Under the pieces are notes generated by a model, which was given only the letters and a program-made list of their open reading frames with translations, made no database searches and was not told the DNA's origin. The position numbers were made by a program, and so were the translations under genes. DNA of 61,637 bases, filler included, from Candidatus Fermentibacterota bacterium (lineage in GTDB: Bacteria; JAFGKV01): the NCBI GenBank assembly GCA_016928395.1. It is 3 parts of 3 records of this genome, joined end to end, with 100 filler letters (N's around TTAATTAATTAA, not from the genome) between each part and the next. Parts side by side here need not be neighbours in the genome. Positions count along the whole stretch, not along the records: positions 21,668 to 47,021 come from JAFGKV010000173.1; 2 more parts are not named here. One strand, given 5' to 3'. This document shows positions 17,012 through 47,121 of the stretch, piece by piece. Position 1 is the first letter of the stretch. Each line of letters opens with the position of its first letter.

Positions 17012-19276
17012 GTGAGACTCACAGTGTTAAGTGTCATTGTATCCTTGATGCTGGCCGGCACAGCATCGGCCACTCTGCATCAAGACGCCAAGGCGCCGGC
17101 GCCGGGCCGAACCTCCGTCGCCATGCCTCGCGACGGCCTCGCCCAGGATCCCAATGGCCCCCCGTCACCGGCCATGCCTCCTGCACAGGAATCGCAGCGT
17201 TCGCCCGCCGATTTTCCCGATGCAGGGTTTAACTGGGTGCTGGGCCAGGGGATCATGTATCCGTCCACAGCCACCGGCAGCAAGATGCTCGGCCCCCTCT
17301 GCTACTACAATACCCGCAAGGTTGTTGGCGGCGATGACGAGGTGTTCGTGGCCGGCTGGGAAGCCGGCTCCGACGCCGATAATGAAATCATGATCACCAG
17401 TTGGGATTCGTTCTTCGGTCTATGGAGCCCCCCGGCTCCTATCAGCGAGTCCCCCACCGATGCCGGGCGGGTGGATCTGGCGCGGGGCGCGGACGGTACG
17501 ATTCACGCGGCATGGCATCAGAACTACAGCGCCTCCACCAGCGTATACGAGATCTTCTACGCCCAGCTTCCCGCGGGCGGGTTTCAATGGAGCGCACCGG
17601 TTCGGGTCTCCTTGGCGGACGCCACGGAATCCAACTTCCCCAATGTCGGCGTCGACAATGCCGGCAACGTGACGGTCCGGTGGGCAGAGCTGCTCCGGGA
17701 TGCGTCGGGCGGGATCGCGGAGTACCGGGGCTACGCGGTCAACACCTCCACCGACAATGGCGTGACCTGGAGCGATGACAATGTGCGGGTCGCCGCTCAG
17801 GGAGGAGAGAGGATCTACGGTGCTATGTGCGTGGATCCGATCTCCGGGGATATCTATCTCGTCGATTTCGATCCCGACGTGGATCCCGCGGACGAGTATG
17901 ATGACCTTATCGTGTATCACTACAACAAGGCCACCGATACGTGGGAAGGCCCTGAGATCATCGTCTACGCCGGTGGGCCGGATGAGCCGCTTCTCCACGC
18001 CGTCATGTACCCGTCGGCAGCGGTGGGCCCCGACGGGACAGTGCATGTTCTCTATGCCCAGACGACCAACACCGACCCAGGCTACATCTGGGTTGATACC
18101 CAGGTCGGAATGCCCGTGGCGGCGCAGCTCTACATGATCAGCGGCACCTATGGGAACTGGGGCGCCCCCGAGGCGATTTACCCCGGCACCGATGGAATCT
18201 ATGAGGGCTATGAAGGCGTCTATCCTGATTCCACCTGGCTGCAGTTCTGCAGCTTTGCCCAGGTTGGTCTCGATGCCAACAACCGCATCTACGTCGCGAC
18301 CCGTGCCTACGAATACTACAATGGCGGGTATCTGACCGGATTCAGTGACATGAACTCCGATCTGGCTGGTGGCAACTGGCAGCCTGAGGAGTGGATCGCG
18401 GCCAAGGATCTGAACCGCAACGGCGAATGGGTGTGGACCCGCGGATCCGACATCAACCTTCGCCCCGACAGTATCGGCGTGAAGTACTCGAAGGTTCCGG
18501 AACGCATGCCGACCGGCGGCGCCTGCGCCGTGTGGGACGAGACCTACACCGGCTATATGCCCGAGAAGGTTATGTTCGTTCGTCTCACCGACTTCACAGC
18601 CCCCGGGCCTCTGACCGATATCGTCCCCACTCGACCCGTTGAGAACGGCCCGGTGACCTTCACGTGGACTAATCCTGCAGATGAGGATCTGGCTGGCGTT
18701 CAGGTTATCCGGCTGACCACGGGGAAAGGTCATCTGGTCGGCCTGCGGCGTGGCCTCATTCCGCTGAACGACGCGGGTGAATGGTTGTACGATCAGGAGA
18801 ATGACGTCTTCGTGCTGGAGCCGGAGGAGGGTGAACCTATGCCGACGGAGTGGACCGATGAGACTGCTCCCGCAGGCACGGTCTACTACACGTTCGTACC
18901 CTACGACGTGAATCTGCATCACCTCTATCCCATACCTGATCACGCCTGTGTCCGCGTGGATTCCATAGTGGTGGGTAGCGGCCCGGCCCAACGTCCTTCC
19001 AGCCTCCAGTTGGATGGGTTGTCGCCCAACCCGGCCATATCCGGTACGGACATTCGTTTCGCAGTAGCCGAGGCGGGGCAGGTGCGCATCGCGATGTACG
19101 ACGTCAGCGGCCGCTGCGTGGCAACGCTGATGGACGGGCGCGTTGATGCCGGCCTCGACACCGTACGTTGGGATCTCACCGCCACTGACGGCTCGCGAGT
19201 CGGCAATGGCGTGTATGTCTGCCGTCTCGAGCAAGGATCCAGGAGCACCTCACGGCACGTGGTAGTCGTGCGCTGA
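17012..19276 (+). CDS. Secreted protein with BNR/Asp-box propeller-like region and FlgD-Ig/T9SS-type C-terminal domain
   Basis: Signal peptide (..AGTASA), Asp-box STDNGVTW, and C-terminal SPNP...MYDVSGRCVATL...WDLTATDGSRVGNGVYVCRL; SD AGGAGGT. Confidence 0.8.
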   Translation: MRLTVLSVIVSLMLAGTASATLHQDAKAPAPGRTSVAMPRDGLAQDPNGPPSPAMPPAQESQRSPADFPDAGFNWVLGQGIMYPSTATGSKMLGPLCYYNTRKVVGGDDEVFVAGWEAGSDADNEIMITSWDSFFGLWSPPAPISESPTDAGRVDLARGADGTIHAAWHQNYSASTSVYEIFYAQLPAGGFQWSAPVRVSLADATESNFPNVGVDNAGNVTVRWAELLRDASGGIAEYRGYAVNTSTDNGVTWSDDNVRVAAQGGERIYGAMCVDPISGDIYLVDFDPDVDPADEYDDLIVYHYNKATDTWEGPEIIVYAGGPDEPLLHAVMYPSAAVGPDGTVHVLYAQTTNTDPGYIWVDTQVGMPVAAQLYMISGTYGNWGAPEAIYPGTDGIYEGYEGVYPDSTWLQFCSFAQVGLDANNRIYVATRAYEYYNGGYLTGFSDMNSDLAGGNWQPEEWIAAKDLNRNGEWVWTRGSDINLRPDSIGVKYSKVPERMPTGGACAVWDETYTGYMPEKVMFVRLTDFTAPGPLTDIVPTRPVENGPVTFTWTNPADEDLAGVQVIRLTTGKGHLVGLRRGLIPLNDAGEWLYDQENDVFVLEPEEGEPMPTEWTDETAPAGTVYYTFVPYDVNLHHLYPIPDHACVRVDSIVVGSGPAQRPSSLQLDGLSPNPAISGTDIRFAVAEAGQVRIAMYDVSGRCVATLMDGRVDAGLDTVRWDLTATDGSRVGNGVYVCRLEQGSRSTSRHVVVVR

Positions 19277-20352: not shown

Positions 20353-21567
20353 TCAGTCCTCCCACTCCTCGACGCATTCGATCCTCAGCCCCTTGAGTTC
20401 ATCGAGGATCGGCTCATACAGCTCGCGCACCACCGGAATATGCACACCGGTCAGGCGTATGTGACCGTCCAGCAGTAGCTTTGTGCCCACCGCCGCCGGA
20501 AGACTCACAGTCTTGGACATGGCGGAATCGCCTTCCGGCTCACCACAGGCGACCAAGGTTGAGGTGATACGCCGCAGGGCGGACCGGCCCGGATAGGAGA
20601 CGAGGAACTCGTGCAGGAGCACGATCATGTCCTTCTCACCTTTCCGGTAGGGCATCATCTCGGCCAAGCGCATCGCCAGTGCATCCGCCAGGGACTCGGC
20701 GCCGCGCGGGATGGGCCGGTTGTCCAGCAATCCCATCCAGGCGATGTTGTTCATCTCAAGACTCTGTGGGTGGAGCGCCAGGAAGCGGGCCACGGCGCCG
20801 CGGGCGTCTTCGCCGGGCATCCTGCCTGCCATCTCCCCCACCAGCGAACCGAAGGTAAAAGTGTGCAGGTCGGCGCGTGGCGTTGGATTCACGATCCCCA
20901 ACTCCACCAGTTTCTGCCACGTGGCGCACCAGCCCAGGTTCCGGAGCGTGCCGCGAAACATGGTGTGCACGCCATGGAGGCCATACGTCTCGATGTAGCT
21001 CACCGAGTCACGATTGGGGTAGCCTTCCAACTCGCCCACGCCGGCCGCGAACACGGGCCAATGGGTGGCGAAAAGGCGAGTATTGGGGATCTCCTTCAAA
21101 TGCCCATCCTCGATGAACTTCGCGCTATTGGTCCCTGCCAACACCACGCCCTTGGGGCTCCAGGAAAACTTGTACCCAAGTGGGTTGTCGTTGTCGTCGG
21201 GAGAGGGGAGACCTCCGCAGTAAGATCGGAATGACACCACGGTCCCGCCGCCATCCTTCACTGCCTCGATCACCCGCATGGCCGACATGTGATCAATGCC
21301 GGGGTCCAAGCCCAGTTCATTGAGGAACAGGAGGCCGGCTTCCTTAGCCGCCCCGTCCAGAGCCTGCATCTCGGGCTTCACATAGCTTGTGGTGACCAGA
21401 TGACGCTTGTGGGCAAGGCATTTCCGGGCAACATCGAGGTGAAACACATAGGGCAACAGGCTGATCACGACGTCGCTTTGGGCGATGAGGGCGTCCAGGG
21501 CAGCCATGCCGCCCGAGGCATTGACATCCAGGGCTACAGCACTTCCCCGGGGGTGTGCGCCCAGGAT
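20353..21567 (-). CDS. Saccharopine dehydrogenase family protein (5' truncated at contig end)
   Basis: VISLLPY, VTTSYV, NELGLDPGIDHMSA, SYCGGLP, YKFSWSP, YPNRDS and RGTLR; frame is open to the gap. Confidence 0.93.
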   Translation of the reverse strand: MLGAHPRGSAVALDVNASGGMAALDALIAQSDVVISLLPYVFHLDVARKCLAHKRHLVTTSYVKPEMQALDGAAKEAGLLFLNELGLDPGIDHMSAMRVIEAVKDGGGTVVSFRSYCGGLPSPDDNDNPLGYKFSWSPKGVVLAGTNSAKFIEDGHLKEIPNTRLFATHWPVFAAGVGELEGYPNRDSVSYIETYGLHGVHTMFRGTLRNLGWCATWQKLVELGIVNPTPRADLHTFTFGSLVGEMAGRMPGEDARGAVARFLALHPQSLEMNNIAWMGLLDNRPIPRGAESLADALAMRLAEMMPYRKGEKDMIVLLHEFLVSYPGRSALRRITSTLVACGEPEGDSAMSKTVSLPAAVGTKLLLDGHIRLTGVHIPVVRELYEPILDELKGLRIECVEEWED

Positions 21568-21667
21568 NNNNNNNNNNNNNNNNNNNNNNNNNNNNNNNNN
21601 NNNNNNNNNNNTTAATTAATTAANNNNNNNNNNNNNNNNNNNNNNNNNNNNNNNNNNNNNNNNNNNN
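21568..21667. other. Artificial contig-joining linker
   Basis: 100-nt N run containing TTAATTAATTAA (21612-21623), which gives stops in all six frames. Confidence 0.97.
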
Positions 21668-21824
21668 ATCCGGCATCATGCGCCCTCACCCCGCACCCGC
21701 GGATGCGGGGGATGAGGGTGATGGGTGCCGCGTGGAGTGAAGTTACAGCTTAGTCGGGCCTCTGAGGGCCAGGTCTCCGTTGCGATATCCCCCGCCGAAC
21801 CGTTCCCCGATCTTCGTTCGTGCT

Positions 21825-21853
21825 TTGACGTTAGACCCGATGAGAGCTACCTT
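21825..21853 (+). promoter_or_regulatory. Candidate sigma70 promoter of glnA-gatE-gatD
   Basis: TTGACG (21825-21830), 17-nt spacer, TACCTT (21848-21853); SD AAGGAG precedes ATG 21912. Confidence 0.55.
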
Positions 21854-21911
21854 GAAGCCCCCTTGCCGATATGCCGTGTATGGCTCGTCTCGATTGATAA
21901 AGGAGCCCCCG

Positions 21912-23345
21912 ATGTTCTCCTCGCTTGAAGAACTCCAACAGTATGTGAAGTCTGAAGAGATCCAGGCCATCGATCTACGTTTCGTGGATCTGTTAGGCGC
22001 CTGGCATCATATCACCATCCCGGCCCGAGCCGCCAATGATGAACTGATGGAAAAGGGCGTCGGGTTTGACAGCGGAAGCATTCCCGGCTTCCGCACGGTG
22101 GAATCAGGCGACATGGTGCTCATTCCCGATCTCTCCACGGCATTCGTTGATCCGTTTCCCTCAGTGGCCACCGTGTGCCTGATTTGCACCATCGCTGAGG
22201 CTGATACCCGCGCGACCGTGCCCAATGATCCACGAACCGTTGCCTTGGCTGCGGAGCGCTACCTGGCCGGCAGCACATTCGCGACGAGTTCCATCTGGGG
22301 GCCCGAGTTTGAGTTCTACGTGTTCGATCGGGCCCGCTACAATGACTCCGGCACCTTCCTGCTGGCCGACGTCTTCTCCCAGGAATCGCACGCATTCCTC
22401 GAAGGAGAGATGCTGGCGCACGAAGGCTATCAGATGGGCGCCCAGAAGGGATATCACGCCATTCCTCCTCTCGACAGCCTGGCCGACTGGCGCAGCGAGC
22501 TCATGGAACTCCTGGAGGATGCCGGAGTACCCGTCAAGTACCATCATCACGAAGTGGGGGCATCCGGCCAATGCGAAGTCGAGGTCGATATGGGGCCTTT
22601 GACTGTCATGGCTGACCGTACGATGATTCTCAAGTACTTCGTTCACATGCTGGCCGCGCGCTACGGCAAGCTGGCGACCTTCATGCCCAAGCCCATTTAC
22701 GGCGAGGCCGGCAGCGGTATGCATTTCCACCAGATGCTACGCCGGGGTGACGAGCCGGTATTCTATGATGAGAAGGGGTATGGAGGGTTCAGTGGGCTTG
22801 GGCTTTCCTATATCGCGGGGATCCTCGATCACGGACGCTCTCTGGGCGCCATCACCAACCCCAGCACCAACTCCTATAAGCGCCTCATTCCCGGGTTCGA
22901 AGCGCCCGTCAAGCTGTTCTTCAGCCTTGCCAACCGCAGCGCGGCCATCCGTATCCCCAAGTATGCAACGGCACCCCTTGACAAACGCATGGAGTATCGG
23001 CCGCCGGATGCGACGTGTAACCCCTATTTGGCCATGTCGGGAATGCTTCTCGCCGGCATCGACGGGATGCGCCGCGGCCTCGACCCCTCCGCTATGAACT
23101 TCGGGCCCTTCGATCAAGATCTCTTCCACCATCCCGACGAGGAGTTCAAGAGGAGCATCCGCTCGGTCCCGGTCTCGCTGGAGGAAGCCATGGAGGCGCT
23201 CATGGCGGATCAGGGATACCTGGTGGATGGCGGCGTGTTTCCCGCATCTCTCCTGGCAACGCTGGTGAGCATCAAGTCCAAGGAGGCACGATCGGTCGCG
23301 GATCGCCCCCATCCCCATGAGTTCGCGCTGTACTTCAATGCGTGA
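21912..23345 (+). CDS. glnA: Type I glutamine synthetase
   Basis: GPEFEFYVF, HHHEVG, ATFMPKP..GEAGSGMHFHQ, NSYKRLIPGFEAP, NRSAAIRIP and EYRPPD. Confidence 0.97.
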   Translation: MFSSLEELQQYVKSEEIQAIDLRFVDLLGAWHHITIPARAANDELMEKGVGFDSGSIPGFRTVESGDMVLIPDLSTAFVDPFPSVATVCLICTIAEADTRATVPNDPRTVALAAERYLAGSTFATSSIWGPEFEFYVFDRARYNDSGTFLLADVFSQESHAFLEGEMLAHEGYQMGAQKGYHAIPPLDSLADWRSELMELLEDAGVPVKYHHHEVGASGQCEVEVDMGPLTVMADRTMILKYFVHMLAARYGKLATFMPKPIYGEAGSGMHFHQMLRRGDEPVFYDEKGYGGFSGLGLSYIAGILDHGRSLGAITNPSTNSYKRLIPGFEAPVKLFFSLANRSAAIRIPKYATAPLDKRMEYRPPDATCNPYLAMSGMLLAGIDGMRRGLDPSAMNFGPFDQDLFHHPDEEFKRSIRSVPVSLEEAMEALMADQGYLVDGGVFPASLLATLVSIKSKEARSVADRPHPHEFALYFNA

Positions 23346-25254
23346 TCTTCCTAATCCGGACTTTCTGCAGGAGGGATTTCCGCTTGGCGATCTCATACCC
23401 CCGGCACGGCGTATCCCCCGCCCGCTTTATCTCAGCGCGGAGGAATATGCCGCCTTGGGGCTCAAGTGCGGCATCGAAGTACACCAGCAGCTCCTGACCG
23501 CCGGCAAGCTGTTCTGCCGTTGCCCGGCGCGGCGTTACTCCCTTGATCACCATGCGTCGGTCCTGCGCCACATGCGACCGACCCTGAGCGAGCTGGGAGA
23601 ATATGACGGCACCGCGTTGATGGAGTTCAAGACCAAGAAGAATATCACCTACATGTTGAACCGGGAATCCGTCTGCACCTACGAGATGGACGACACGCCT
23701 CCCTTCCCCATGGACCAGCGCGCACTGCAGATAGCCATCGAGATTGCTTTGGTACTGCGTTGCCGCATGGTGAGCGAGATCCATATCGCCCGGAAGCAGT
23801 ACCTGGACGGCAGTATACCTACGGGATTCCAGCGCACCACCATCGTCGGCGTCGAAGGCATGGTACCCTTCGGCGACAGGGCCATCAGGATTATTCAGCT
23901 CGGACTGGAGGAAGATGCCTGCCGGGAGGTGAGTGATCGCGGGCACGACCGGTATTACCGAACTGATCGATTGGGCATGCCGCTTATCGAGACGGTCACC
24001 TATCCCGAGCTCTTCACGCCGTGGGAGGCGGTCTGGTTTGGACAGCTTCACCGCTTGCTGCTTCGAACCACGGGCAAGGTACGACGCGGCATCGGGGCCG
24101 CCAGGCAGGATGTCAATGTCTCAGTCGCAGGTGGCAGAAGGGTCGAGATCAAGGGCGTCGAACGAATTCCTTTGTGGGGGCCCCTCATCCATTACGAGGC
24201 CCTGCGCCAGAGAGGGCTCTTGTCCCTGAGGGATGAAGCCTCACGCCGTGGCAATCCGGCCCAGTGGCTCACCACCACCGTACCTGTCGATCCCGGCACT
24301 GTGTCGACGCTGTTGCCGCCGTCATGGGACACTGCCAAACCCATGGCGGTGGTAGTCTTGCCCGGATTCCGCAGCTTGCTCGCGTGGCCCTTGGGCGGTA
24401 CCCGGACATTCGCCCACGAGATCTCCGATCGCGTGAGAGTGGTGGCCTGCATCGACCGCCCCAATCTCGTCCATTCTGACGACGTGCCCGAGGCCTGGAC
24501 TGCCCTGCGGTCCCTCGCGGGCGCAGGAGAGGATGATGCACTGGTACTCCTGGGAGGCAATGAAGAAGACCTTGTCACGGCCTGCAGGGAGGTCGCCGAC
24601 CGTTGTCGCGAGGCGTGGGACGGCGTCCCGTCGGAAACCCGCCAGGTGCTGCCTGACGGGACGACAGGCTTCGAGCGAATACTTCCCGGCCCCGACCGGA
24701 TGTACCCCGACACTGATCTTCCGCCCATTGAGGTGCCGCCTGAGCGGATCGAGTCAGTCCAAAGGGACCTTCCAATGCCTCCGTGGGAGCGTGCGAATAG
24801 ACTCAGAGCTGCGGGCCTGTCTACGCGTAGTGCGGGATACCTGGCCAGACGGCGCGACGCAACTGCAGTTTTTCGGGTTCTTACGAACTCAGGGCGCGAT
24901 CTCTCTGAGGCTCTGGTGCAGGCCTTTGTCGCCATGTGGGACTCTGGGGGGAATCGTGACGAACGGGTGGCCTGCCAGGTGATCGAGGCGGCCTGCGACG
25001 GAGTGATTCACCCCAAGGCCATGCCTGCCCTTTTCCACCTCCTGCGGGCGAAGCCCCATGATGACTATGAAGCACTAGCCCGCGAGCATGGCCTCAGTCT
25101 GCTTTCAGCGGACGACATCGGTCCGATGATCGCTGAGGAACTGAGCGAAGGCAAGAAGGAGGGCCTGTTCGTGCGCATCATGAAGAGGCTCGGCCCTCGG
25201 GTTCAGGCACATACGGTCCTCGATCTCCTGGAAGATCAGGGAGTGGCGCCATGA
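23338..25254 (+). CDS. gatE: Glu-tRNA(Gln) amidotransferase subunit E (archaeal-type GatE)
   Basis: GLKCGIEVHQQL, LRHMRPTLSELGEYD, YEMDDTPP, RKQYLDGSIPTGFQRT, LEEDACR, DRLGMPLIE, GKVRRGIGAARQDVNVS, RVEIKGV, AspRS-like insertion LPGFRSLL and PGPDRMYPDTD. These are GatE rather than GatB signatures. Confidence 0.93.
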   Translation: MRDLPNPDFLQEGFPLGDLIPPARRIPRPLYLSAEEYAALGLKCGIEVHQQLLTAGKLFCRCPARRYSLDHHASVLRHMRPTLSELGEYDGTALMEFKTKKNITYMLNRESVCTYEMDDTPPFPMDQRALQIAIEIALVLRCRMVSEIHIARKQYLDGSIPTGFQRTTIVGVEGMVPFGDRAIRIIQLGLEEDACREVSDRGHDRYYRTDRLGMPLIETVTYPELFTPWEAVWFGQLHRLLLRTTGKVRRGIGAARQDVNVSVAGGRRVEIKGVERIPLWGPLIHYEALRQRGLLSLRDEASRRGNPAQWLTTTVPVDPGTVSTLLPPSWDTAKPMAVVVLPGFRSLLAWPLGGTRTFAHEISDRVRVVACIDRPNLVHSDDVPEAWTALRSLAGAGEDDALVLLGGNEEDLVTACREVADRCREAWDGVPSETRQVLPDGTTGFERILPGPDRMYPDTDLPPIEVPPERIESVQRDLPMPPWERANRLRAAGLSTRSAGYLARRRDATAVFRVLTNSGRDLSEALVQAFVAMWDSGGNRDERVACQVIEAACDGVIHPKAMPALFHLLRAKPHDDYEALAREHGLSLLSADDIGPMIAEELSEGKKEGLFVRIMKRLGPRVQAHTVLDLLEDQGVAP

Positions 25255-26639
25255 GTGCAGACGAACGCTTCAAGGGGTATCGCGGCCCCGCGCGCGCACT
25301 TCTGGAGCGGGAGAATGTCGGCGTCTGGTCTGATGTGGAGGTTGCCACCTCCCGGGGGCCCTTCGCCGGCATTATTTTGCCGAGGAGCGAACAGGCGGAC
25401 GATCGCCATCTCGTCATCAAGCTCCGAAACGGCTACAATGTAGGTCTCGCCACCAATCTGGTGGAGCGCATCACCGAAATTGGGCGACGCGAAGCCCACT
25501 ACAAGATTCCCGAGAAGGAGTTCCCTTTCGATCCCGGGAGACCACGGGTGAAGCTCATCGGTACGGGCGGTACCATCGCCAGCAGGCTCGACTACCGGAC
25601 CGGGGCCGTGATCCCGGCGTTTTCCCCTGGTGAGTTGTATGGGTCGGTACCTGAGCTGGCGGACATCTGCAATCTGGAGACCGAGAAACTCTATGCCGTG
25701 TTCAGCGAGAATATGGGGCCGGAGCAATGGCTGGGCACGGCCCGAGCCATCGCATCGGAGATGAACAAGGGCGTCGCCGGCATCGTGGTCGGCCACGGCA
25801 CGGACACCATGCACCATACCGCGGGCGTCCTCTCCTTCATGCTCCAGAACCTCCCGGCGCCGGTGGTGATCGTGGGATCCCAGCGGTCCAGCGATCGGCC
25901 CTCGTCCGATGCGGCCCTGAACCTCATTCATGCAACACGAACCGCGGCGTGGGGCGACATCGCGGAGGTCATGGTCTGCATGTTCGGCCCCACCAGCGAC
26001 GAGTATGGGTTGCTGCATCGCGGCACCCGTGTGCGCAAGATGCATTCATCCTACCGGTCGACCTTCCGAACCCTGGGTGACATTCCCCTGGCCCGGGTCG
26101 ATCGGAAGGGGGTCTATCCTCTCCGGGATGACTATCACCGCCGCGGCGCGTCGCCCAAGGTGCACCTGGCAGATCACTTCGACGACCGCGTTTCCATCGT
26201 CTACTACTATCCCGGCATGAAGCCCGACGTCATTGACGCGCTCATCGACCACGGGTATCGCGGCATCGTCATTGCCGGCACCGGTCTGGGACACGTCAAT
26301 AAACCGTTGTACCCGGCACTGAAGCGGGCCCAGGAGGCGAAGGTCGCCATCTTCATGACGGTGCAGACACTCTGGGGCTACGTGCAGATGTACGTCTATG
26401 ACACCGGGCGCGACATGATGGCCCTGGGCGTGGTACCCGCCGCCAACATGCTCCCCGAGGTTGCGTACATGAAACTGGGCTGGGCTTTGGGAAAGACAGA
26501 CGACCTGGAGGAAATCGGCCGCATCATGCTGACTCCCGTGGCTGGCGAGATCACCGCCCGTGAGCCCTTCGACGGCTACCTGATCTACCAGGGGGGCATT
26601 CCGGAAATCGAGGCCTTCCTCAAGGGTGTGCTGCGCTAG
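25251..26639 (+). CDS. gatD: Glu-tRNA(Gln) amidotransferase subunit D (archaeal-type GatD)
   Basis: GatD N-terminal domain (GIILPR..VIKLRNGYNVG), then GTGGTIASRLDYRTGAV, VFSENM, HGTDT, GSQRSSDRPSSD, HRGTRVRKMHSS, GTGLGH and MLPEVAYMKLGWALG. Confidence 0.95.
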   Translation: MSADERFKGYRGPARALLERENVGVWSDVEVATSRGPFAGIILPRSEQADDRHLVIKLRNGYNVGLATNLVERITEIGRREAHYKIPEKEFPFDPGRPRVKLIGTGGTIASRLDYRTGAVIPAFSPGELYGSVPELADICNLETEKLYAVFSENMGPEQWLGTARAIASEMNKGVAGIVVGHGTDTMHHTAGVLSFMLQNLPAPVVIVGSQRSSDRPSSDAALNLIHATRTAAWGDIAEVMVCMFGPTSDEYGLLHRGTRVRKMHSSYRSTFRTLGDIPLARVDRKGVYPLRDDYHRRGASPKVHLADHFDDRVSIVYYYPGMKPDVIDALIDHGYRGIVIAGTGLGHVNKPLYPALKRAQEAKVAIFMTVQTLWGYVQMYVYDTGRDMMALGVVPAANMLPEVAYMKLGWALGKTDDLEEIGRIMLTPVAGEITAREPFDGYLIYQGGIPEIEAFLKGVLR

Positions 26640-26776
26640 CCCGGGTCACGTTCCGTCGGCCTGTCTGAGTCAGCCCTCCATCGGTCGGAGGCGTGTGGTG
26701 CGAGAGGCGACGGAAGTCAGAGTTTTGGCGGGGCTCCCAGAGGCCGTGCCCTCAGAAGCCCGGCGCAACGGCGTTC

Positions 26777-26810
26777 CTGGCCACTATTCTAATATTAGAA
26801 TAGTGGCCAG
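26777..26810. repeat. Perfect 34-bp palindrome
   Basis: CTGGCCACTATTCTAAT|ATTAGAATAGTGGCCAG is its own reverse complement. Confidence 0.97.
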
Positions 26811-27012
26811 AGACCACCTCCGGGCTGTGGGCTGCCGGTGGCCCACGCTCAGTATCGGGTTCATTCGTACGGCCACGTAGTGAGAGCAGGGCGACCGAGC
26901 AACGGGCGAGCGATGAGGGCAACTACCCGCTGCGATATCTCACCGATCGAGGGACACAGTGTGTTGGGATAAGGCGACGGTCGAAGGCGCGCAGTAGGGT
27001 GAATCCGAGGAT

Positions 27013-28113
27013 CTAGAACAACGGAGTCGGCAAGCTCAGTTCGGCCATGCTGTCCAGCACGAACAGGTCGGTCATGCCCGCCATGAAATCGATGACACGG
27101 CGTGAGGCTGGGGCGTTTTCTGCGTCGTGTACCGCTGCATAGCGGTTACGGTAGTGTGCATACACCTCCTCCAGCCGTAGTCGCGGTCTGCTGCGCCGCA
27201 GCTCGTCCGCTTCAAACTCAAGGAGGAACTGAAACAGCCACTTGAGGATCCGTTCGCAGTGCTCGTGATACGCCAGAAGCCTCTCGTTGCGGTAGATGTG
27301 CGCAAAGCTAAAGGCAAACAGCTCACGCATGAGATCGTACTTCTGCTCTGACAGGGCGATGCCCCGATCTGGCGACGATGTGCCGATGAGGTCCACAACG
27401 AACGCGTCGATGATCTCCCCATTGCGCGTCCCCAAATTGGCGCGCACCGCGGCGGGAACCGACCCGAGCTCGATGATGCCTGCCTCCACGGCGTCTTCCA
27501 CGTCACGGCCCAGATAGGCCACCTTGTCTGCCATGCGCACAGCGCACCCTTCCCAGGTGATGGGGTAGGTCTTGAGCCAACGATCGCGATCCACCGTCTC
27601 CAATGCCAACGGCTCCTCTCGGGGGCACAGGCTCTGTTCGAAGCGTTCGCCGCAATGGAACAGCACGCCGTCCCGCACCGCGTAGGTAAGATTCAGGCCT
27701 TTGCCGCCATTGCACAGGCAATCGAGCACCCTGAGGCTGTGAATCTCATGGACAAACCCGCCGCACTCTTCGGCCAGGGAATCCAGTATCTCCTCTCCGG
27801 TATGACCAAAAGGTGCATGGCCCACGTCGTGACCCAAGCCGATGGCTTCGGCCAGCTCCGGATCCAGGGAAAACCCTTTGGCATTGAGACCCTTGCAGAT
27901 GGTGGCGCCGATGGTGGCCACGTGCAGCACATGCTCGATGCGCGTGCAGATATGATCGTTCCTCGGCGCGAAGAACACCTGGGTCTTATGCTTCAGGCGG
28001 CGGAAAGGCGAACTGTGGATTATGGCAGTCTGGTCTCGGAAGTAGGGGCCCCGGGCGTCGTCCGCCCTGGCCACGAAACGGCGCCTGGCCTCGGGTGAAC
28101 TCCCCGCCAACAT
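27013..28113 (-). CDS. dgt: HD-domain dNTP triphosphohydrolase (dGTPase-like)
   Basis: FRRLKHKTQVF, TRIEHVLHV, GHDVGHAPFGHTGE, ADKVAY and IDFMAGMTD. Confidence 0.9.
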   Translation of the reverse strand: MLAGSSPEARRRFVARADDARGPYFRDQTAIIHSSPFRRLKHKTQVFFAPRNDHICTRIEHVLHVATIGATICKGLNAKGFSLDPELAEAIGLGHDVGHAPFGHTGEEILDSLAEECGGFVHEIHSLRVLDCLCNGGKGLNLTYAVRDGVLFHCGERFEQSLCPREEPLALETVDRDRWLKTYPITWEGCAVRMADKVAYLGRDVEDAVEAGIIELGSVPAAVRANLGTRNGEIIDAFVVDLIGTSSPDRGIALSEQKYDLMRELFAFSFAHIYRNERLLAYHEHCERILKWLFQFLLEFEADELRRSRPRLRLEEVYAHYRNRYAAVHDAENAPASRRVIDFMAGMTDLFVLDSMAELSLPTPLF

Positions 28114-28167
28114 CAGAAGACTCCCCCATCTGCGCGCGGTGTCGGAGAAACGCTCATCATGGGCGTC

Positions 28168-28833
28168 TTACCACGCGGAACCAACGGTCATAATCCCACT
28201 GTGGGATGCCCATCTCTTGGCCTCACCCACCGTCGTGAACTCGCCGTGCCCGGGCAGCAGAACAGTTTCGGGGGATAACGCGAACATGGACCGTAGTGAT
28301 TCGACCAGATGGTCCCATGAGCCACCCCAAAGATCGGTGCGCCCGACGCCTTCATGGAACACGGTGTCGCCGGAAAGCACCGCACCATGGCCGCGCAGTA
28401 GAAACGCCACGCTGCCCGGCGAATGTCCCGGGGTGTGCATGGTCTTTAGTGACCACCCCGCCTCATCGATAACCTGCCCGCCGGTAATCTCCTGGATCTC
28501 GTTCGGCAATGACGGTACCTGTACTCCCAAGAACTCCGCCTGCAGCCCCATGGCCTCCCACAGCGGCCGGTCATCCCCGTGAAGCAGGATAGGTGCCGGG
28601 CCCATCGCCTCCAGCAGCTCTGGCAGGCCAAAGAGATGATCGATATGACCGTGGGTCAGCACCACAGCGCCGAGGCGCAGATTTCTGCGGAGAAGCTCAT
28701 GCGCGATGAGCCGTCCATCGCCGCCGGGATCCACGACCACTGCCGGGTCTTTCGCTTCGGGCAGGAGGACAAAGCAGTTGGTCTGAAGCTCTCCCACCAC
28801 GAGATGGACTATGCGATGCGGAAGTCGGATCAC
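28168..28833 (-). CDS. MBL-fold hydrolase (glyoxalase II/YcbL-like)
   Basis: TNCF, VDPGG, LTHGHIDH, HTPGHSPGS, GVGRTDL and LPGHG; GTG start overlaps the upstream TAG. Confidence 0.9.
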   Translation of the reverse strand: MIRLPHRIVHLVVGELQTNCFVLLPEAKDPAVVVDPGGDGRLIAHELLRRNLRLGAVVLTHGHIDHLFGLPELLEAMGPAPILLHGDDRPLWEAMGLQAEFLGVQVPSLPNEIQEITGGQVIDEAGWSLKTMHTPGHSPGSVAFLLRGHGAVLSGDTVFHEGVGRTDLWGGSWDHLVESLRSMFALSPETVLLPGHGEFTTVGEAKRWASHSGIMTVGSAW

Positions 28834-29954
28834 TACAGCTCCCAGTCCAGGGAACAGAGGTCGCGGCATCCGGTGGACGTCACCACCACGACATCCTCAA
28901 TGCGTACCCCGCCGACTCCCGGGTAGTAGAGCCCTGGCTCCACAGTAACGACGTCCCCCTCTTCCAGAATCAAGCTGTCCTTGGAGATGCGGGGGGCCTC
29001 GTGAATATCCAGGCCAAGGCCGTGACCAGTGCCGTGGATGAATCCCTGAGGTTTTCCGTCAACCGTCTCAGTCACGAAACCCCGGTCGTCGAAGATGTCC
29101 AGCACCCGCTGGTGAAGGTCCTTACCGTCAACCCCTGCCTTGATATTGGACAAGACGGCAATCACGGCGTCGGCCACCGTTCGGTGCATCTTGACCACCT
29201 GTGTCGAAGGCGTGCCGTGCACCACCGTGCGTGTGGTATCTGCACCATACCGTGTCGCTTGCGACAGAGGAAACACATCAAGGATTATGGTCTCGCCCGT
29301 GCGCATTGGGCCGTGACCGAGCTCGTGGGGGAGGGTCGCGTGGTCGCCGCAGGATACAATGGGAGGAGCACCTGCATATCCCGCTTTCAGCAACTCGACC
29401 TGGATGAAGCTCCGCACCCGCTCCGAGGTGAGGATGTCCCCGTCTGAGTAGAGCACACCGCCGCGCACCGAGGCGCCGCGGATCATGTGCCGGGCCATGT
29501 CGAGAACCCGTTCGGTCTGACGCATGGCCTCGGCCATCTGCTGGATTTCCCACGCTGTCTTATGCCGCCGCTGAGGCCAGAATGGGGAGTCACCTAGCGT
29601 CACCATATGGCCAAGCTCGCGAAGCCGGTCCACATGACGAGCCGCCGTGGCGCCCGGCATGCACAGGGGCAGGGCTCCCGACGCTGTGTCCTGCAAATAG
29701 GCGTGCAGGATGTCGGCCAGGGTCGGGATTCCTTGGAGCGACTCCTTCAGCTTCTCCCGATACGGCGCCATCGCCACAACCTGGTCTACCCGGGCTGTCT
29801 CCTTCGCCCTCCCCAACTCCAAATCGCTGACAATCAAAGTCTTGGTGTCGCCGACCTCTAGATACACCAGCGGATCAGGGGCAAGGAAACCGGTTCGCCA
29901 GTAGAGGTCGGCATCCTTCTCAGGATTGGCAATCATGGCGCGAACTTCACTCAT
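28833..29954 (-). CDS. Xaa-Pro peptidase, family M24
   Basis: LPH, DTTRT, HGTGHGLGLDIHEAP and TVEPGLYYPGVGGVRIED. Confidence 0.93.
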   Translation of the reverse strand: MSEVRAMIANPEKDADLYWRTGFLAPDPLVYLEVGDTKTLIVSDLELGRAKETARVDQVVAMAPYREKLKESLQGIPTLADILHAYLQDTASGALPLCMPGATAARHVDRLRELGHMVTLGDSPFWPQRRHKTAWEIQQMAEAMRQTERVLDMARHMIRGASVRGGVLYSDGDILTSERVRSFIQVELLKAGYAGAPPIVSCGDHATLPHELGHGPMRTGETIILDVFPLSQATRYGADTTRTVVHGTPSTQVVKMHRTVADAVIAVLSNIKAGVDGKDLHQRVLDIFDDRGFVTETVDGKPQGFIHGTGHGLGLDIHEAPRISKDSLILEEGDVVTVEPGLYYPGVGGVRIEDVVVVTSTGCRDLCSLDWEL

Positions 29955-30095
29955 CATATTCCTCCAGGGTATGTGGCATCGCAACAGCTCGGCTGGTGGG
30001 GTTCAATGAAGCGACAAGATCCGTTCGTCGAGGTCTCGCCGTGTTCAGCGCTCCCTCGCGATGAAGAGCACGCAGCCCGCCACCAACCGCAACAG

Positions 30096-30932
30096 TCAGC
30101 CCTTCACGCTTCCTAGAGTCAACCCGCCCACCAGCCATTTGGAAAGGGAGAGAAACAGCACCATGACCGGCACGGCGACCAGCAATGCACCCGCCGAGTA
30201 GAGACCCCATTCCGTGCTGAAGTTGGATTGAAACTGCTTCAGGCCAAGAGGCAGTGTGTACAGCCGTTTGTCGCTCAAGACTACCGCCGCCACCAAGTAT
30301 TCACTCCATGCCGCCATGAAACTGAACAAGGCGGTGATGACCAGGGCAGGCAGGGCCAGTGGCAGGACGACCTTGTGGAACGCCCTGAAGGGGCCGCATC
30401 CATCGATGGCGGCAGCTTCCTCAAGGCTTGAGGGTATGGTATCGTAATAGCCTTTCATGGTCCATATGCAGAATGGCAGAGCGGTGGCCGAATAGATGAT
30501 CACCAGACCCCCGAAGGTGTTCCACAAATGCAAGGTCCGCAACAGCAGAAACATGGGGAGCAGGAGCATGGTCGCCGGGAACATCTGAGTCGTGATCAGG
30601 CTGATCATTGCAGCCCGCCTTCCGGGGAAGGAAAACCGACTGATCGCATACCCTGCGGTGGATGCCAAGGTGACACCCAGCAGGGTCACGAAAAGGCTTA
30701 CGATAGAGGAGTTGGTGAGCCACCGCAGGAAGTCCGTTTTTGTGAACAGCGTTACGTAGGAGGTAAGGGTGGCATTGTCGGGTATGAGTGCCAGACTTCT
30801 GCTGTGGAGCTGATCTCCGGGCCGGAGACTCACGGTGACCACCCGGAGGACCGGGTAGATGCTGAACGCGACAAAGATGAAAAGCACGGCATAGATGACG
30901 ATGGTCATCCACAGAGGGTCTTTCTGATGCAT
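30096..30932 (-). CDS. malG: Sugar ABC transporter permease (MalG-like)
   Basis: TQMFPA, MKGYYDTIPSSLEEAAAIDG (EAA loop) and GGLTLGSVKG. Confidence 0.88.
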   Translation of the reverse strand: MHQKDPLWMTIVIYAVLFIFVAFSIYPVLRVVTVSLRPGDQLHSRSLALIPDNATLTSYVTLFTKTDFLRWLTNSSIVSLFVTLLGVTLASTAGYAISRFSFPGRRAAMISLITTQMFPATMLLLPMFLLLRTLHLWNTFGGLVIIYSATALPFCIWTMKGYYDTIPSSLEEAAAIDGCGPFRAFHKVVLPLALPALVITALFSFMAAWSEYLVAAVVLSDKRLYTLPLGLKQFQSNFSTEWGLYSAGALLVAVPVMVLFLSLSKWLVGGLTLGSVKG

Positions 30933-30934
30933 GG

Positions 30935-31813
30935 CTAGTACACCGCCTCGGTTCCCTTCGTCCCTTTGATGAACCTGATGGAGAAGAGCAATAGAATGCC
31001 GAAGATGACCATGGATAAGGCTGCTGCATACCCGAATCGGTAGAGATTGAACGCGGCCCGATAGACATAGGACACGAGAATGTGTACCTGGTCGGCCGGG
31101 CGCCCGCCATTAGACACAAGCCAGATGACATTAAAGTTGTTGAATGTCCAGATGACACCCAACGTCACCGCGGGAACCAGAACCGGCCTCAGCAAGGGTA
31201 TGGTGATCCTCCACAGCCTCTGCCATCGGCTCGCACCATCGACTACCGCGGCTTCGTACAGCTCCGCCGGGATGCTCTGCAGTCCGCCCAGGGCAACGAT
31301 CATCATGAAGGGAAACCCCAACCAGATATTGGTGATCAGACACGCGGCAAAGGTGCTGACCGGTTGCGAAAGCCATGCTACGCCGGGCAATCCAAACGCC
31401 TTGTCGAGCACCAGATTCACTGCGCCATACTCGTAGTGAAACATGCCGCGCCAGGTCAGTGCGGTGATGTACTGAGGAACCGCCCAGGGAAGCACCAGAA
31501 GCGTGCGGATCACCGCCCGCCCGGGCAGAGGACGATTCAGCAACAATGCGAGACTCACACCGATCACGACGTGGAAGACGACATTGATCACCGTCCACAA
31601 GACGGTCTTGAGCAACGTGCTGTAGAAGATGCCTTCGCTAAAGACGCTCACGTACTGCCCGAACCCCGTGATGCGCCATGTCCAGAAGTGCTTCATGCTC
31701 ATGTTGGACAGGCTGACCACGACATTGTAGACGAAGGGAAACACAACCACCAGCGCCAGAATCCCCAGAGCGGGGAAGGCAAAGGAGTATGCGATGCGTT
31801 GTTCTCTCGTCAC
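30935..31813 (-). CDS. malF: Sugar ABC transporter permease (MalF-like)
   Basis: LPWAVP, NIWLGFPFMM, LQSIPAELYEAAVVDGA and FNNFNVIWL. Confidence 0.88.
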   Translation of the reverse strand: MTREQRIAYSFAFPALGILALVVVFPFVYNVVVSLSNMSMKHFWTWRITGFGQYVSVFSEGIFYSTLLKTVLWTVINVVFHVVIGVSLALLLNRPLPGRAVIRTLLVLPWAVPQYITALTWRGMFHYEYGAVNLVLDKAFGLPGVAWLSQPVSTFAACLITNIWLGFPFMMIVALGGLQSIPAELYEAAVVDGASRWQRLWRITIPLLRPVLVPAVTLGVIWTFNNFNVIWLVSNGGRPADQVHILVSYVYRAAFNLYRFGYAAALSMVIFGILLLFSIRFIKGTKGTEAVY

Positions 31814-33090
31814 CGGTTCATCTCCTCAATGGCCTTCTCTGCCGCCCTCTGGGCGTCCTGGGCCGCCTGCTCCGGCGTCTTTGTTCCGTTCAGAACCGAT
31901 TGGTAGTTGGGGCGCAAGGTATCCCAAATAGCCCGGAGCTCCGGGTCCACCGGCATGGGCTTGCCGACTCGGGCTTGCTCCATACTCAGCTGGATCATCT
32001 CGTCGTCGGCTATCGCCGGATCATCCATACAGTCGAGACGAGACGGTATGGTCTTCATCGCTCGCGCATAGACCAGTTGGGCGTCACGGGAGGTAAGGTA
32101 GGTGAGGAGATTCAACACCATGCGAAGCCGTTCACCGTGGAGATGGACATTCACGCTATACCCCTGGGTGGACACCATGGGCGTTGCCCAGAGCCCGGTG
32201 GCGCTGACCTTGGGAATGAGGGCCAACCCCATATCGATACCCATGTTCAAATACGACGCCCAGGACCATGGCCCATTGATGATCATGGCCGCACGGCCTT
32301 CTTTGAACAGAGCGTCTGCGGTATCGTAGTCACTCTCGGGCGGCAGAATGCGATGGGTAAACTTAAGATCGTACATGAAGCGGAAGGCAGCCACGGTCGC
32401 CGGGGTATCCAAGGTGGGCCGGGCCTCGTCATCCATCACCCATCCGCCGAATCCCCCGAGAAACGGCACGAAGAAAAAGGGCTCCTCGAAGTTCCATGCC
32501 ATTCCATAGTAGTCCATCCGGCCGTCGCCGTCTTCGTCTCTGGTAAAATCGCGGGCGATCTGGATCATCTCATCGGTGTCCCGAGGCGGCTGCGGAACGA
32601 GGGCTCTGTTGTACACCAGATGCAGGTGATTGCCGATCTGGTCGCTGAGCTGGTACAGATGCCCGCGGCGCCACACCAGCCCTTCCGGCAGGAATGCATC
32701 CACCACCTCTCGGGAGAGAAGCTGTTCGAGAGGAGCGACAAGTTCCATCTCGCTGAAAGGCCCTACCTGGTCTCCCGGGCCATACACGAGATCCGGGCCG
32801 CTGCCCCCCAGCGTGGCGATCTGATAGTTGCTGCGCAGCTCTTCCGGCTCATAGTACACTTGGGCGCATGATACGCCGTGCATCCGCCCGAACTCCGTGA
32901 GCAGAGAGTCGAGGATCGCCCGGCCCTCAGGCCTCATCGTGTTCCACACCACCAAGTCCCCCGCTCCTCGTGGCCCGCAGGATACCATGACGAGGGAGCA
33001 AAGAAGACCGCCGAATCCTACTAACCCTCTGACGCCCATGCCCGAGCCACTCGCCCGTGTGTGAGACCCGGCGGATCGCGACTGAATCAC
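31810..33090 (-). CDS. malE: Maltose/maltodextrin-type ABC substrate-binding lipoprotein
   Basis: Lipobox-like LVMVSC, GPDLV, LVYNRAL, AMIINGPW and PMP..PEL..IWD. Confidence 0.82.
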   Translation of the reverse strand: MIQSRSAGSHTRASGSGMGVRGLVGFGGLLCSLVMVSCGPRGAGDLVVWNTMRPEGRAILDSLLTEFGRMHGVSCAQVYYEPEELRSNYQIATLGGSGPDLVYGPGDQVGPFSEMELVAPLEQLLSREVVDAFLPEGLVWRRGHLYQLSDQIGNHLHLVYNRALVPQPPRDTDEMIQIARDFTRDEDGDGRMDYYGMAWNFEEPFFFVPFLGGFGGWVMDDEARPTLDTPATVAAFRFMYDLKFTHRILPPESDYDTADALFKEGRAAMIINGPWSWASYLNMGIDMGLALIPKVSATGLWATPMVSTQGYSVNVHLHGERLRMVLNLLTYLTSRDAQLVYARAMKTIPSRLDCMDDPAIADDEMIQLSMEQARVGKPMPVDPELRAIWDTLRPNYQSVLNGTKTPEQAAQDAQRAAEKAIEEMNR

Positions 33091-33356
33091 CGTATTCCTC
33101 CATCCGGCACGGGGATATGCGCCCCACAGAGCGCGGACAAAGCCTTGGAGCTGGCATTATGCATCGCCTAAGCGTCTGGCTCAAGGGTATCGGTGCACTC
33201 ACCCATAAGAACCCACGGTATGCTTGCGGGCCTCACCGTTGGGAATGATCTTGTGTGGCCACGTCACCATGTAGTGGTCTGAATTGGCACGCGGGCTGAA
33301 TGCACGCTGGCGATATCGCGCTGCACATGAGCCTGCCATCGCGCTGGAGCTTTGGT

Positions 33357-34016
33357 ATGAATCGATTTCTCACGGTTTCCCTCACTCTTCTCTTCCCCCT
33401 CTCGGCTGCGTTTGCCTTGGACATGTCGGATCGCGGCATGCTTACCGGTCAACTCCGCCTGGGCCTACGCGGCAATGACAAGTTTGGCAACACTATAGGC
33501 CATGAACTCCCCGCCGAACATGAGCTGCGCATGCAACCGCTGGAAAGCGACCCCGGGTTCGGCGTTTCCTTCTCGTATCGCCGTGGCATCACCCCCAGCG
33601 TACTTCTGGGGTTCTCATTGGACTATCTCAAGAGCGGCGTCATGGAGGGCAAGGGAGTGGAGGATGTAGAGAATCGTCTGGCCCAGACCGATTCGCTAAG
33701 CACGTCTCTCGGCGCCTATTCACTGTATGGCGTGGGGGTCTCCCTCTACCCGGGGGTAAGCATCGGCGAGAACCTGATGGTCTTTGTTCAGATCGGTGTA
33801 GGAGGATACACGGCCAGAATCGCGGGAAACAGCGAGGAACTCAATGCTGCACTTAACCTGGGACTCTCCGCGGGATACTACCTGAACGATTCCTGGGGAA
33901 TTGAGCTGGCCGCCCAGATGCCTCTGTTTCTCGCCGAGTTCAGGTACTTGGAGGAAGGGTACAGCTTCGACCCCTCTCCTCTGCAGCTCTGTGCGGGCGT
34001 GGCCTGGCTCTGGTAG
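33357..34016 (+). CDS. Small outer-membrane beta-barrel protein
   Basis: Signal peptide ending AAFA, amphipathic strands and C-terminal aromatic residue (GVAWLW). Confidence 0.65.
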   Translation: MNRFLTVSLTLLFPLSAAFALDMSDRGMLTGQLRLGLRGNDKFGNTIGHELPAEHELRMQPLESDPGFGVSFSYRRGITPSVLLGFSLDYLKSGVMEGKGVEDVENRLAQTDSLSTSLGAYSLYGVGVSLYPGVSIGENLMVFVQIGVGGYTARIAGNSEELNAALNLGLSAGYYLNDSWGIELAAQMPLFLAEFRYLEEGYSFDPSPLQLCAGVAWLW

Positions 34017-34052
34017 AAGCTCTGATCAAGGCCAGGTCGAGATAGAAAGCCG

Positions 34053-34086
34053 AAGCGGGTGAAGGGCTCGCCCTTCACCCGCTTTT
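34053..34086. terminator. Bidirectional intrinsic terminator between the OMP gene and rpsA
   Basis: AAGCGGGTGAAGGGC-TC-GCCCTTCACCCGCTT inverted repeat with T/A runs on the flanks, between convergent genes. Confidence 0.8.
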
Positions 34087-34100
34087 CTACTCCCGGAAGT

Positions 34101-36113: not shown

Positions 36114-36307
36114 AGCCCCAGCCAGCCGGGATATCCCCTGGCCTCATATGCAGACCAGATGCGGCCCGCTAGAAAACGCCATATCAGGACACCAGCACCA
36201 CCACGCGCCTCACGGCGACCGCCGCGGGTCGTTGTTCACATCTCCGAAATCACGAATCGGGAATGCGTCGGCGTTCGGTGTGTCTCAGCCGTTCATGAGA
36301 ACCGTGC

Positions 36308-47021: not shown

Positions 47022-47121
47022 NNNNNNNNNNNNNNNNNNNNNNNNNNNNNNNNNNNNNNNNNNNNTTAATTAATTAANNNNNNNNNNNNNNNNNNNNNNN
47101 NNNNNNNNNNNNNNNNNNNNN
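47022..47121. other. Artificial contig-joining linker
   Basis: 100-nt N run containing TTAATTAATTAA (47066-47077). Confidence 0.97.

Follow-up and report, generated by a model that had tools for sequence, protein, structure and literature searches.

A GatDE-type tRNA amidotransferase locus in a Candidatus Fermentibacterota genome, with a probable role beside glutaminyl-tRNA synthetase

The DNA analysed here, referred to as the window, is a stretch of 61,637 nucleotides from the Candidatus Fermentibacterota bacterium assembly GCA_016928395.1, in which three parts of three records are joined with 100 filler letters between neighbouring parts; the part taken from JAFGKV010000173.1 (positions 21,668 to 47,021) carries a glnA–gatE–gatD gene group. 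We consider it probable that this locus encodes a working heterodimeric GatDE, a Glu-tRNA(Gln) amidotransferase, that serves tRNA-Gln with the bacterial U1-A72 first base pair, in parallel with glutaminyl-tRNA synthetase (GlnRS) and the bacterial amidotransferase GatCAB. In the mechanism that we propose, GatD would free ammonia from glutamine or asparagine, and GatE would phosphorylate the glutamate on Glu-tRNA(Gln) and amidate it to Gln-tRNA(Gln), accepting a tRNA-Gln of the U1-A72 type in doing so. GatDE would run beside GlnRS, in this lineage also beside GatCAB, and is probably not the only source of Gln-tRNA in the cell; its likely task would be the conversion of Glu-tRNA(Gln) that a non-discriminating or second glutamyl-tRNA synthetase (GluRS) has produced. 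We infer both this substrate and the mischarging GluRS from the features and relatives described below.

The two open reading frames (ORFs) lie on the plus strand, gatE (the kinase/transamidase subunit; 645 aa ORF) at 23317..25254 and gatD (the asparaginase-fold amidase subunit; 462 aa ORF) at 25251..26639. An earlier, sequence-only reading of this DNA had described two frames with an ATGA overlap at 25251-25254 on the same strand, and both are confirmed; the in-frame ATG at 23338, which it took as the start of gatE, is an alternative to 23317, from where the frame is also open. Its central claim, a complete archaeal-type GatDE in a bacterium, is borne out by curated models, since both subunits reach equivalog cut-offs: GatE scores 352.7 bits with TIGR00134 gatE_arch (cut-off 319.55), and GatD scores 510 bits with TIGR02153 gatD_arch (cut-off 324) and 504.8 bits with NF003217 (cut-off 310). 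Neither protein groups with its better-known relatives. The best model for GatB, the GatE paralogue within GatCAB, gives the gatE ORF only 129.4 bits versus a cut-off of 338, and all GatB models fail widely; the type I asparaginase subfamily model gives GatD 374.4 bits, below both of its GatD equivalog scores. Compared with solved chains, GatD aligns at 417.9 bits with 1zq1_A of Pyrococcus and at 406.8 bits with the other archaeal GatD, versus no more than 138.8 bits with any asparaginase.

The motif sets listed for both subunits in the sequence-only reading align with those of the solved archaeal enzymes 1zq1 and 2d6f. GatD consists of GatD_N (residues 27-73), Asparaginase (99-288) and Asparaginase_C (313-426) domains by Pfam, and its GTGGTIASR, HGTDTM and VRKMH segments match 1zq1_A residue by residue, including those residues within them that we take to be catalytic. 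GatE is collinear with the archaeal chains 1zq1_C (301.9 bits) and 2d6f_C (286.9 bits), and its GIEVHQQ, LEED and PLIE motifs line up with both. Its cradle domain holds an insertion of about 150 residues, since Pfam GatB_N spans residues 50-478 on only 277 model positions. The predicted fold is that of archaeal GatE: an AlphaFold2 model built on an alignment of 41 sequences (pLDDT, the predicted local distance difference test score, 82.4; pTM, the predicted template-modelling score, 0.82) has 1zq1_C as its top match (E 2e-39, TM by target 0.76), followed by 2d6f_D and 2d6f_C. These 1zq1_C and 2d6f matches lie at an E of about 1e-39 and 32-34% identity, and GatB chains come next at about 1e-20 and 16-20% identity.

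Two parts of GatE bear on tRNA recognition. The segment TGKVRRGIG is one that we take to lie opposite the GatB 3-10 turn, on the strength of the GatB motif and a published description. It corresponds to STGkVRTGiG in the consensus of 41 bacterial sequences and to KKVKRGLG and RVKRGLG in archaeal GatE. According to PMC2811023, this short basic loop of GatE replaces the 3-10 turn of GatB and sits beside the tRNA's first base pair. In archaeal GatE a YqeY-like tail with a GXXAXGX motif is the D-loop sensor. Residues 475-640 of the window GatE are modelled as helical, with block-mean pLDDT values of 71-92. The bacterial clade has the tail consensus lMG.vM..lrGrv.G, from which the window GatE, with its shorter tail, departs.

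Selection has evidently preserved both genes. The dN/dS ratio is 0.015-0.136 for gatD (six of seven close pairs, with dS saturated in the remaining pair) and 0.108-0.223 for gatE (five of seven, with dS saturated in the others), and GatD identity stays at 64-76% across phyla whose rpsA shows just 38-65% identity with that of the window. These comparisons argue for strong purifying selection on two genes that are clearly in use.

The nearest relatives sampled are Krumholzibacteriota or Eisenbacteria-like members of the Fibrobacterota–Chlorobiota–Bacteroidota (FCB) group: across 40 genomes, the window rpsA is 58-65% identical to that of Krumholzibacteria- or Krumholzibacteriota-labelled genomes and their neighbours, and 38-55% identical to that of others. 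Together with the Eisenbacteria label found in the cluster of the best GatD match (below), this places the host among FCB-group bacteria of that neighbourhood. The sequence-only reading had concluded that the lineage makes Gln-tRNA by an archaeal-type route, a conclusion not supported by a survey of glnS, gatCAB, gltX and tRNA-Gln in these relatives, which shows parallel routes and a bacterial first base pair. We used 35 GatE-bearing genomes, namely 30 plus five more near the window. GlnRS is above cut-off in 31 of them (27/30 and 4/5), GatB in 15 (12/30 and 3/5, with one further partial GatB among the five), and one or the other in 33. All three systems, GlnRS, GatB and GatDE, are present in the closest relatives G001, G013, G035 and G041, and G032 has GlnRS with a partial GatB.

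The same picture emerges from 81 species drawn evenly from the phylum of G001, five of which also belong to the 35-genome set. GatD is present in 72 species at E<=1e-60 (over the cut-off in 68), GlnRS in 65 and GatB in 58. Thirty-nine genomes combine GatD, GlnRS and GatB, 23 have GatD and GlnRS without GatB, 10 have GatD and GatB without GlnRS, three have GlnRS and GatB without GatD, and six have GatB alone; GatD with neither of the others occurs in 0, so no genome of this sample depends on GatDE alone. At least one amidotransferase is kept in every one of the 81 species, and GatD is present in 23 of the 23 genomes in which GatB was not found. The presence of GatD is positively associated with that of GlnRS: GlnRS occurs in 62/72 species with GatD versus 3/9 without (Fisher p=0.0014, uncorrected for shared ancestry and for the incompleteness of metagenome-assembled genomes, MAGs). 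That GatDE is not the sole route to Gln-tRNA in these relatives is a new observation.

The tRNA-Gln genes of the relatives are also bacterial in type. Of 45 tRNA hits in G001, 41 could be typed, and the length of the four untyped ones (82-85 nt) exceeds that of a tRNA-Gln. Two tRNA-Gln genes, CUG and UUG, are present, each with U1 paired with A72. A covariance model built from these two genes was run over 34 GatE-bearing genomes, and hits of at least 65 bits, plus the best hit in G005, were read using positions counted relative to the T-loop. The 57 distinct tRNA-Gln genes obtained comprise 56 with U1-A72 and a single one with A1-U72, the UUG gene of G020 (L156; G020:C7:71719-71893); since this gene scored 86 bits with a model of bacterial origin, other A1-U72 genes would have been seen. 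The CUG isoacceptor of G020 has U1-A72 and discriminator A73. The bacterial GatDE system thus does not include an archaeal-like tRNA-Gln, and of the two requirements proposed in the sequence-only reading, an archaeal-like tRNA-Gln or an altered GatE specificity, the second would be the one that applies. A GatE that acts on tRNA-Gln would have to accept U1-A72. The basic loop is kept (KVRRG in the window, kVRTG in the clade, KVKRG in archaea), and only a small change in the readout of the first pair need be assumed.

The discriminator base is G73 in 51/57 of these genes and A73 in 6/57 (L115, L152, L150, L130, L133 and L128, in G001, G013, G008, G010, G011 and G020). G73 is an identity element for Escherichia coli GlnRS, and the A73 isoacceptors might be poor GlnRS substrates that depend on an indirect route.

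GluRS is present in all 34 genomes, and nine of them, including G001, G013, G032 and G041, have two separate genes. In 8/34 genomes a gltX gene and a tRNA-Gln gene are no more than about 0.7 kb apart, and in the four just named tRNA-Gln(CUG) and then tRNA-Glu come directly after one gltX, an arrangement that might point to a GluRS that serves tRNA-Gln, either exclusively or among other tRNAs. The second GluRS of G001 (L118; G001:C1:920300-922300; 536 aa) has tRNA-Gln(CUG) within about 90 bases and then tRNA-Glu(CUC), and the same order is found at G013:C3, G032:C36 and G041:C101. Side by side, glnS, gltX and tRNA-Gln occur at G025:C19:36495-39866 and G031:C12:36279-39721, both in GatDE-bearing genomes, and glnS and gltX also adjoin in Aminicenantes- and Ignavibacteria-labelled genomes.

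The window GatDE is an ordinary member of a large bacterial clade. A GatE scan of species-representative genomes gave 585 relatives in 590 candidate stretches, and the best 80 of these are all in bacterial MAGs or chromosomes, some on contigs of 1-4 Mb, with gatD following gatE directly in most. They include Krumholzibacteriota, Aegiribacteria, Aminicenantes, Ignavibacteria, Bacteroidota, Phycisphaerae, KSB1, Cloacimonetes, Calditrichota and others. A protein search with GatD found at least 8000 relatives; among the best 120, 119 are 73-77% identical to the window protein and one is 91% identical, and where NCBI gives a name it is 'Glu-tRNA(Gln) amidotransferase subunit GatD [... bacterium]', from Calditrichia, Ignavibacteria, Krumholzibacteria, KSB1, Kapabacteria, Cloacimonetes and Eisenbacteria. 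Identity within bacteria is 44-57% for GatE and 64-76% for GatD. One predicted protein of the representative set (P0124; 943 aa) joins a tailless GatE portion, about 470 N-terminal residues with 43% identity to the window protein, to a complete GatD (60%); it reflects either a true fusion or a frameshifted record. Frames of 1075-1245 aa without a stop, seen in the phylum sample, were considered as GatE–GatD fusions and rejected: in the two that were checked only GatD models match, at the C-terminal end, and gatE lies in another overlapping frame, so these are open frames of high-GC DNA rather than fusions.

Phylogenies of GatD support a separate bacterial clade. From 484 GatD-like representatives at 50% clustering (E<=1e-30), 150 were listed; a FastTree tree of 182 rows combined 62 bacterial loci and the window with 119 of these 150, omitting the 31 outside 400-490 aa, and a second tree of 68 rows was made with IQ-TREE under LG+C20. 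In both, a branch with 100% support (local or SH-aLRT, the Shimodaira–Hasegawa-like approximate likelihood ratio test) sets all bacterial loci, the window and three representatives apart from the rest; in the IQ-TREE tree this stem has a length of about 0.43. The window GatD nests within this clade, whose sequences group roughly by phylum. Organism names were obtained for 4 of 20 representatives checked (Sigynarchaeota, Thermococcus, Desulfurococcaceae and Thermoplasmatota), all archaeal and outside the bacterial clade; the Sigynarchaeota-labelled sequence, from the Asgard archaea, is in the first group to branch beyond the bacterial stem. As both trees are unrooted and the archaeal side is thinly labelled, we make no claim about the donor lineage. 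The locus is old rather than a recently gained island, in line with the suggestion in the sequence-only reading of an old acquisition or an ancestral bacterial clade; the nesting of the window GatD, the presence of GatD in 72 of the 81 species and the unremarkable codon usage all agree with this.

Set beside the archaeal enzymes of Methanothermobacter thermautotrophicus (2D6F) and Pyrococcus abyssi (1ZQ1), the window pair shares the two-subunit organization with adjacent genes, the GatD_N and asparaginase folds with Thr, Thr-Asp and Lys motifs, the GatE cradle with its large insertion, the helical C-terminal region and the basic loop. It differs in its bacterial host, in its distance (32-34% identity in GatE, and in GatD 35-52% to representatives outside the bacterial clade), in the U1-A72 rather than A1-U72 tRNA-Gln of its hosts, in the coexistence of the bacterial enzymes with GlnRS and often GatCAB, and in a tail without GXXAXGX. 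With GatCAB it has in common the proposed chemistry, hosts whose tRNA-Gln is U1-A72, a homologous cradle domain and a predicted helical tail that may be YqeY-like, and GatB chains are the second-best fold matches of its GatE; unlike GatB, this GatE has the insertion and no 3-10 turn segment, and the amidase partner is an asparaginase-fold GatD rather than the amidase-family GatA, with no GatC. Within the bacterial clade already annotated in databases, where its GatD finds its closest matches, the window stands apart in having glnA upstream and in its shorter GatE tail.

The description of GatDE as archaea-specific, which the sequence-only reading repeated, holds for the reviews PMC9499178 and PMC2811023, but databases already name bacterial GatD. 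Our literature search, which did not reach subscription papers or supplementary files, found no paper on bacterial GatDE, and the clade is thus named in databases and not discussed in the literature searched. This matters because, in the same two reviews, an archaea-only GatDE enters arguments on the last universal common ancestor and on the co-evolution of GatDE with archaeal tRNA-Gln, while whole bacterial phyla carry a conserved GatDE facing U1-A72 tRNA-Gln beside GlnRS. How GatE reads the first base pair, and why bacteria with the direct glutamine route keep an amidotransferase, now become testable questions; the window adds one ordinary member, and it is the clade as a whole that merits biochemical work.

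A fuller account, which we put forward tentatively as one possibility and not as our favoured conclusion, is that the bacterial enzymes form a distinct old GatDE branch with its stem next to the small group that includes the Sigynarchaeota-labelled sequence, retuned to U1-A72 and kept together with GlnRS because the GluRS of these phyla still mischarges tRNA-Gln. If so, GlnRS, a mischarging GluRS and GatDE would make up a third, previously undescribed arrangement for Gln-tRNA, and in genomes that have lost GatCAB, GatDE would be left as the sole amidotransferase, protecting glutamine codons from misincorporation of glutamate.

Several observations weigh against a working GatDE that serves tRNA-Gln in parallel with the other routes. 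With GlnRS present in the relatives, the occurrence of GatDE does not by itself point to a substrate, and the GlnRS, GatCAB, GluRS and tRNA-Gln of the window's own organism are deduced from relatives at 58-65% rpsA identity. Only one GluRS gene is found in 25 of the 34 GatDE genomes, and this enzyme may or may not mischarge tRNA-Gln; GluRS alignments with solved structures have good cover of the catalytic half but poor cover of the half that binds the anticodon, and give no reading of the signature of a discriminating enzyme. GatE reaches 437.1 bits with a second family model, NF003107, 19 bits short of the cut-off of 456. Its tail has no Pfam match, either in the full protein or in the last 165 residues at E<=10, and is the least conserved part, with no invariant columns past W490; at the tail motif position the window has IMKRLGP and Methanothermobacter has GMGAMGP, which is of the GXXAXGX type. 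In two genomes, G027 and G042, neither GlnRS nor GatB is above cut-off, and the co-occurrence statistics carry the uncorrected effects of ancestry and MAG incompleteness noted above.

The enzyme may instead have a changed or widened substrate and amidate Asp-tRNA(Asn), alone or additionally, and thereby supply asparagine on tRNA as GatCAB does in Thermus and Deinococcus, which we think improbable. Archaeal GatDE is specific for glutamate. The first base pair cannot distinguish the two substrates, as both tRNA-Asn and tRNA-Gln of G001 have U1-A72, and neither AsnA nor AsnB was found in the Aminicenantes-labelled genomes G003 and G007, which lack GatCAB. Asparaginyl-tRNA synthetase (AsnRS) is, however, above cut-off in 29 of the 30 GatE-bearing genomes, AsnB in three of the five GatCAB-less genomes tested, and the window's relatives have GatCAB for this task; a second, archaeal-type aspartyl-tRNA synthetase is not evident in these genomes, except possibly in G014. 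Bacteria that keep an amidotransferase despite having both AsnRS and GlnRS have been described (PMC4206432): Bdellovibrio, Thermus and Deinococcus retain GatCAB for the synthesis of Asn-tRNA and asparagine; the enzyme kept here is GatDE, and the reaction that we propose for it is amidation of Glu-tRNA(Gln). The genomes G003 and G007 (behind loci L013 and L066) have AsnRS and GatDE, and no GatB, AsnA or AsnB was found in them; they either import asparagine or form it on tRNA with some enzyme that is not GatCAB, and in such lineages GatDE may have a part in making Asn-tRNA or asparagine.

That the enzyme works outside routine translation, for instance as a conditional reserve, co-regulated with glnA, when glutamine is limiting, or by acting on something other than tRNA-Gln, seems to us unlikely as well. 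It would account for an enzyme that looks redundant with GlnRS and GatCAB and is yet strongly conserved, and the association of GatD with GlnRS points the same way, as does the position of glnA directly upstream of gatE, here and in L001, L004, L008 and L010. Those four are, however, the only ones among the 80 related loci; the linkage is specific to the window's lineage, and co-regulation of gatED with glnA is at most suggested by it; all catalytic and architectural features of a tRNA amidotransferase are kept, and an alternative substrate is indicated by no result.

There is little probability that the organism lacks both GlnRS and GatCAB and, as in archaea, makes all its Gln-tRNA through a non-discriminating GluRS and GatDE. 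Such a sole route would draw on G027 and G042, and the glnS and gatCAB content of the window's organism is deduced from its relatives; those two genomes are, however, fragmentary MAGs, G027 has a GlnRS fragment of 139.7 bits beside gltX in the arrangement seen in its relatives, the 33 other GatE-bearing genomes have GlnRS or GatB, the combination is absent from the 81 species, and the closest relatives carry all three systems.

An artefact, in which archaeal DNA was mis-joined to a bacterial contig, can be dismissed as very improbable: two short N runs lie 1.7 kb upstream and no public contig piece spans the 14.5-kb stretch around the locus, but there is no N from 21668 to 47021, codon usage and GC are in keeping with the rest of the window, all the nearest homologues come from bacteria (in some cases on 1-4 Mb contigs and complete chromosomes), the window GatD falls inside the bacterial clade, and its best match (91%) is on a 562,803-bp contig, with a cluster member labelled Candidatus Eisenbacteria.

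The locus thus reads as a resident of its genome, in which a parallel GatDE remains the reading that we prefer. The only N runs are at 21568-21611, 21624-21667, 47022-47065 and 47078-47121, leaving the glnA–gatED–rpsA stretch free of N; they form two pairs in two places 25 kb apart, each run being 44 bases long with 12 bases between partners. Such a regular form would suggest masked copies of one short element rather than scaffold gaps, but the pairs coincide with the 100 filler letters placed between the parts. Among public Logan contigs (four runs, all with short contigs, and about 56% of run X1), no piece spans 21700-36200, a result by which continuity is neither shown nor refuted, and the joints listed among these contigs have short sides. 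Run X1 contains 99% of the sampled words and may be the source. The sequence-only reading saw no compositional break, and we agree: by codon-usage distance among 27 window genes gatD ranks 7th and gatE 19th, their GC and their GC at third codon positions (GC3) are within the window range, and GC is even along the window. Its account of the bacterial context holds for rpsA (768 bits), cmk (219 bits, cut-off 135.55) and scpB (95 bits, cut-off 89.2); scpA gave no NCBIfam match in the window at E<=1e-10, and neither the outer-membrane barrel nor the Shine-Dalgarno and sigma-70 signals were confirmed, promoter matches being at chance. A scan of 21400-27200 for promoters and terminators gave two promoter-like sites and one terminator-like site, at or below shuffle means.

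Upstream of gatE, glnA (type I glutamine synthetase; 21912..23345, plus strand) scores 482 bits with TIGR00653 GlnA (cut-off 429.15), and its stop codon, TGA at 23343-23345, overlaps both candidate gatE starts (23317 and 23338). The glnA frame is open from TTG 21780; ATG 21912 is the likely start, because the model match begins only at residue 51. Downstream of gatED, dGTPase-like, metallo-beta-lactamase (MBL)-fold hydrolase and Xaa-Pro peptidase-like genes lie on the opposite strand. A tRNA search of the window found no tRNA-Gln gene, and none stands beside gatED in any of 60 related loci within the flanks examined. Contigs from RNA libraries cover portions of gatE and gatD with 0-4 differences (X3 records 18-20; X5 record 26), a weak hint of expression. 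Elsewhere in the window are two large secreted-type proteins that fit an FCB-group host, one of 943 aa at 39242-42073 with weak NHL-repeat-like matches and the other of 754 aa at 17012-19276 with a type IX secretion system (T9SS) C-terminal sorting domain.

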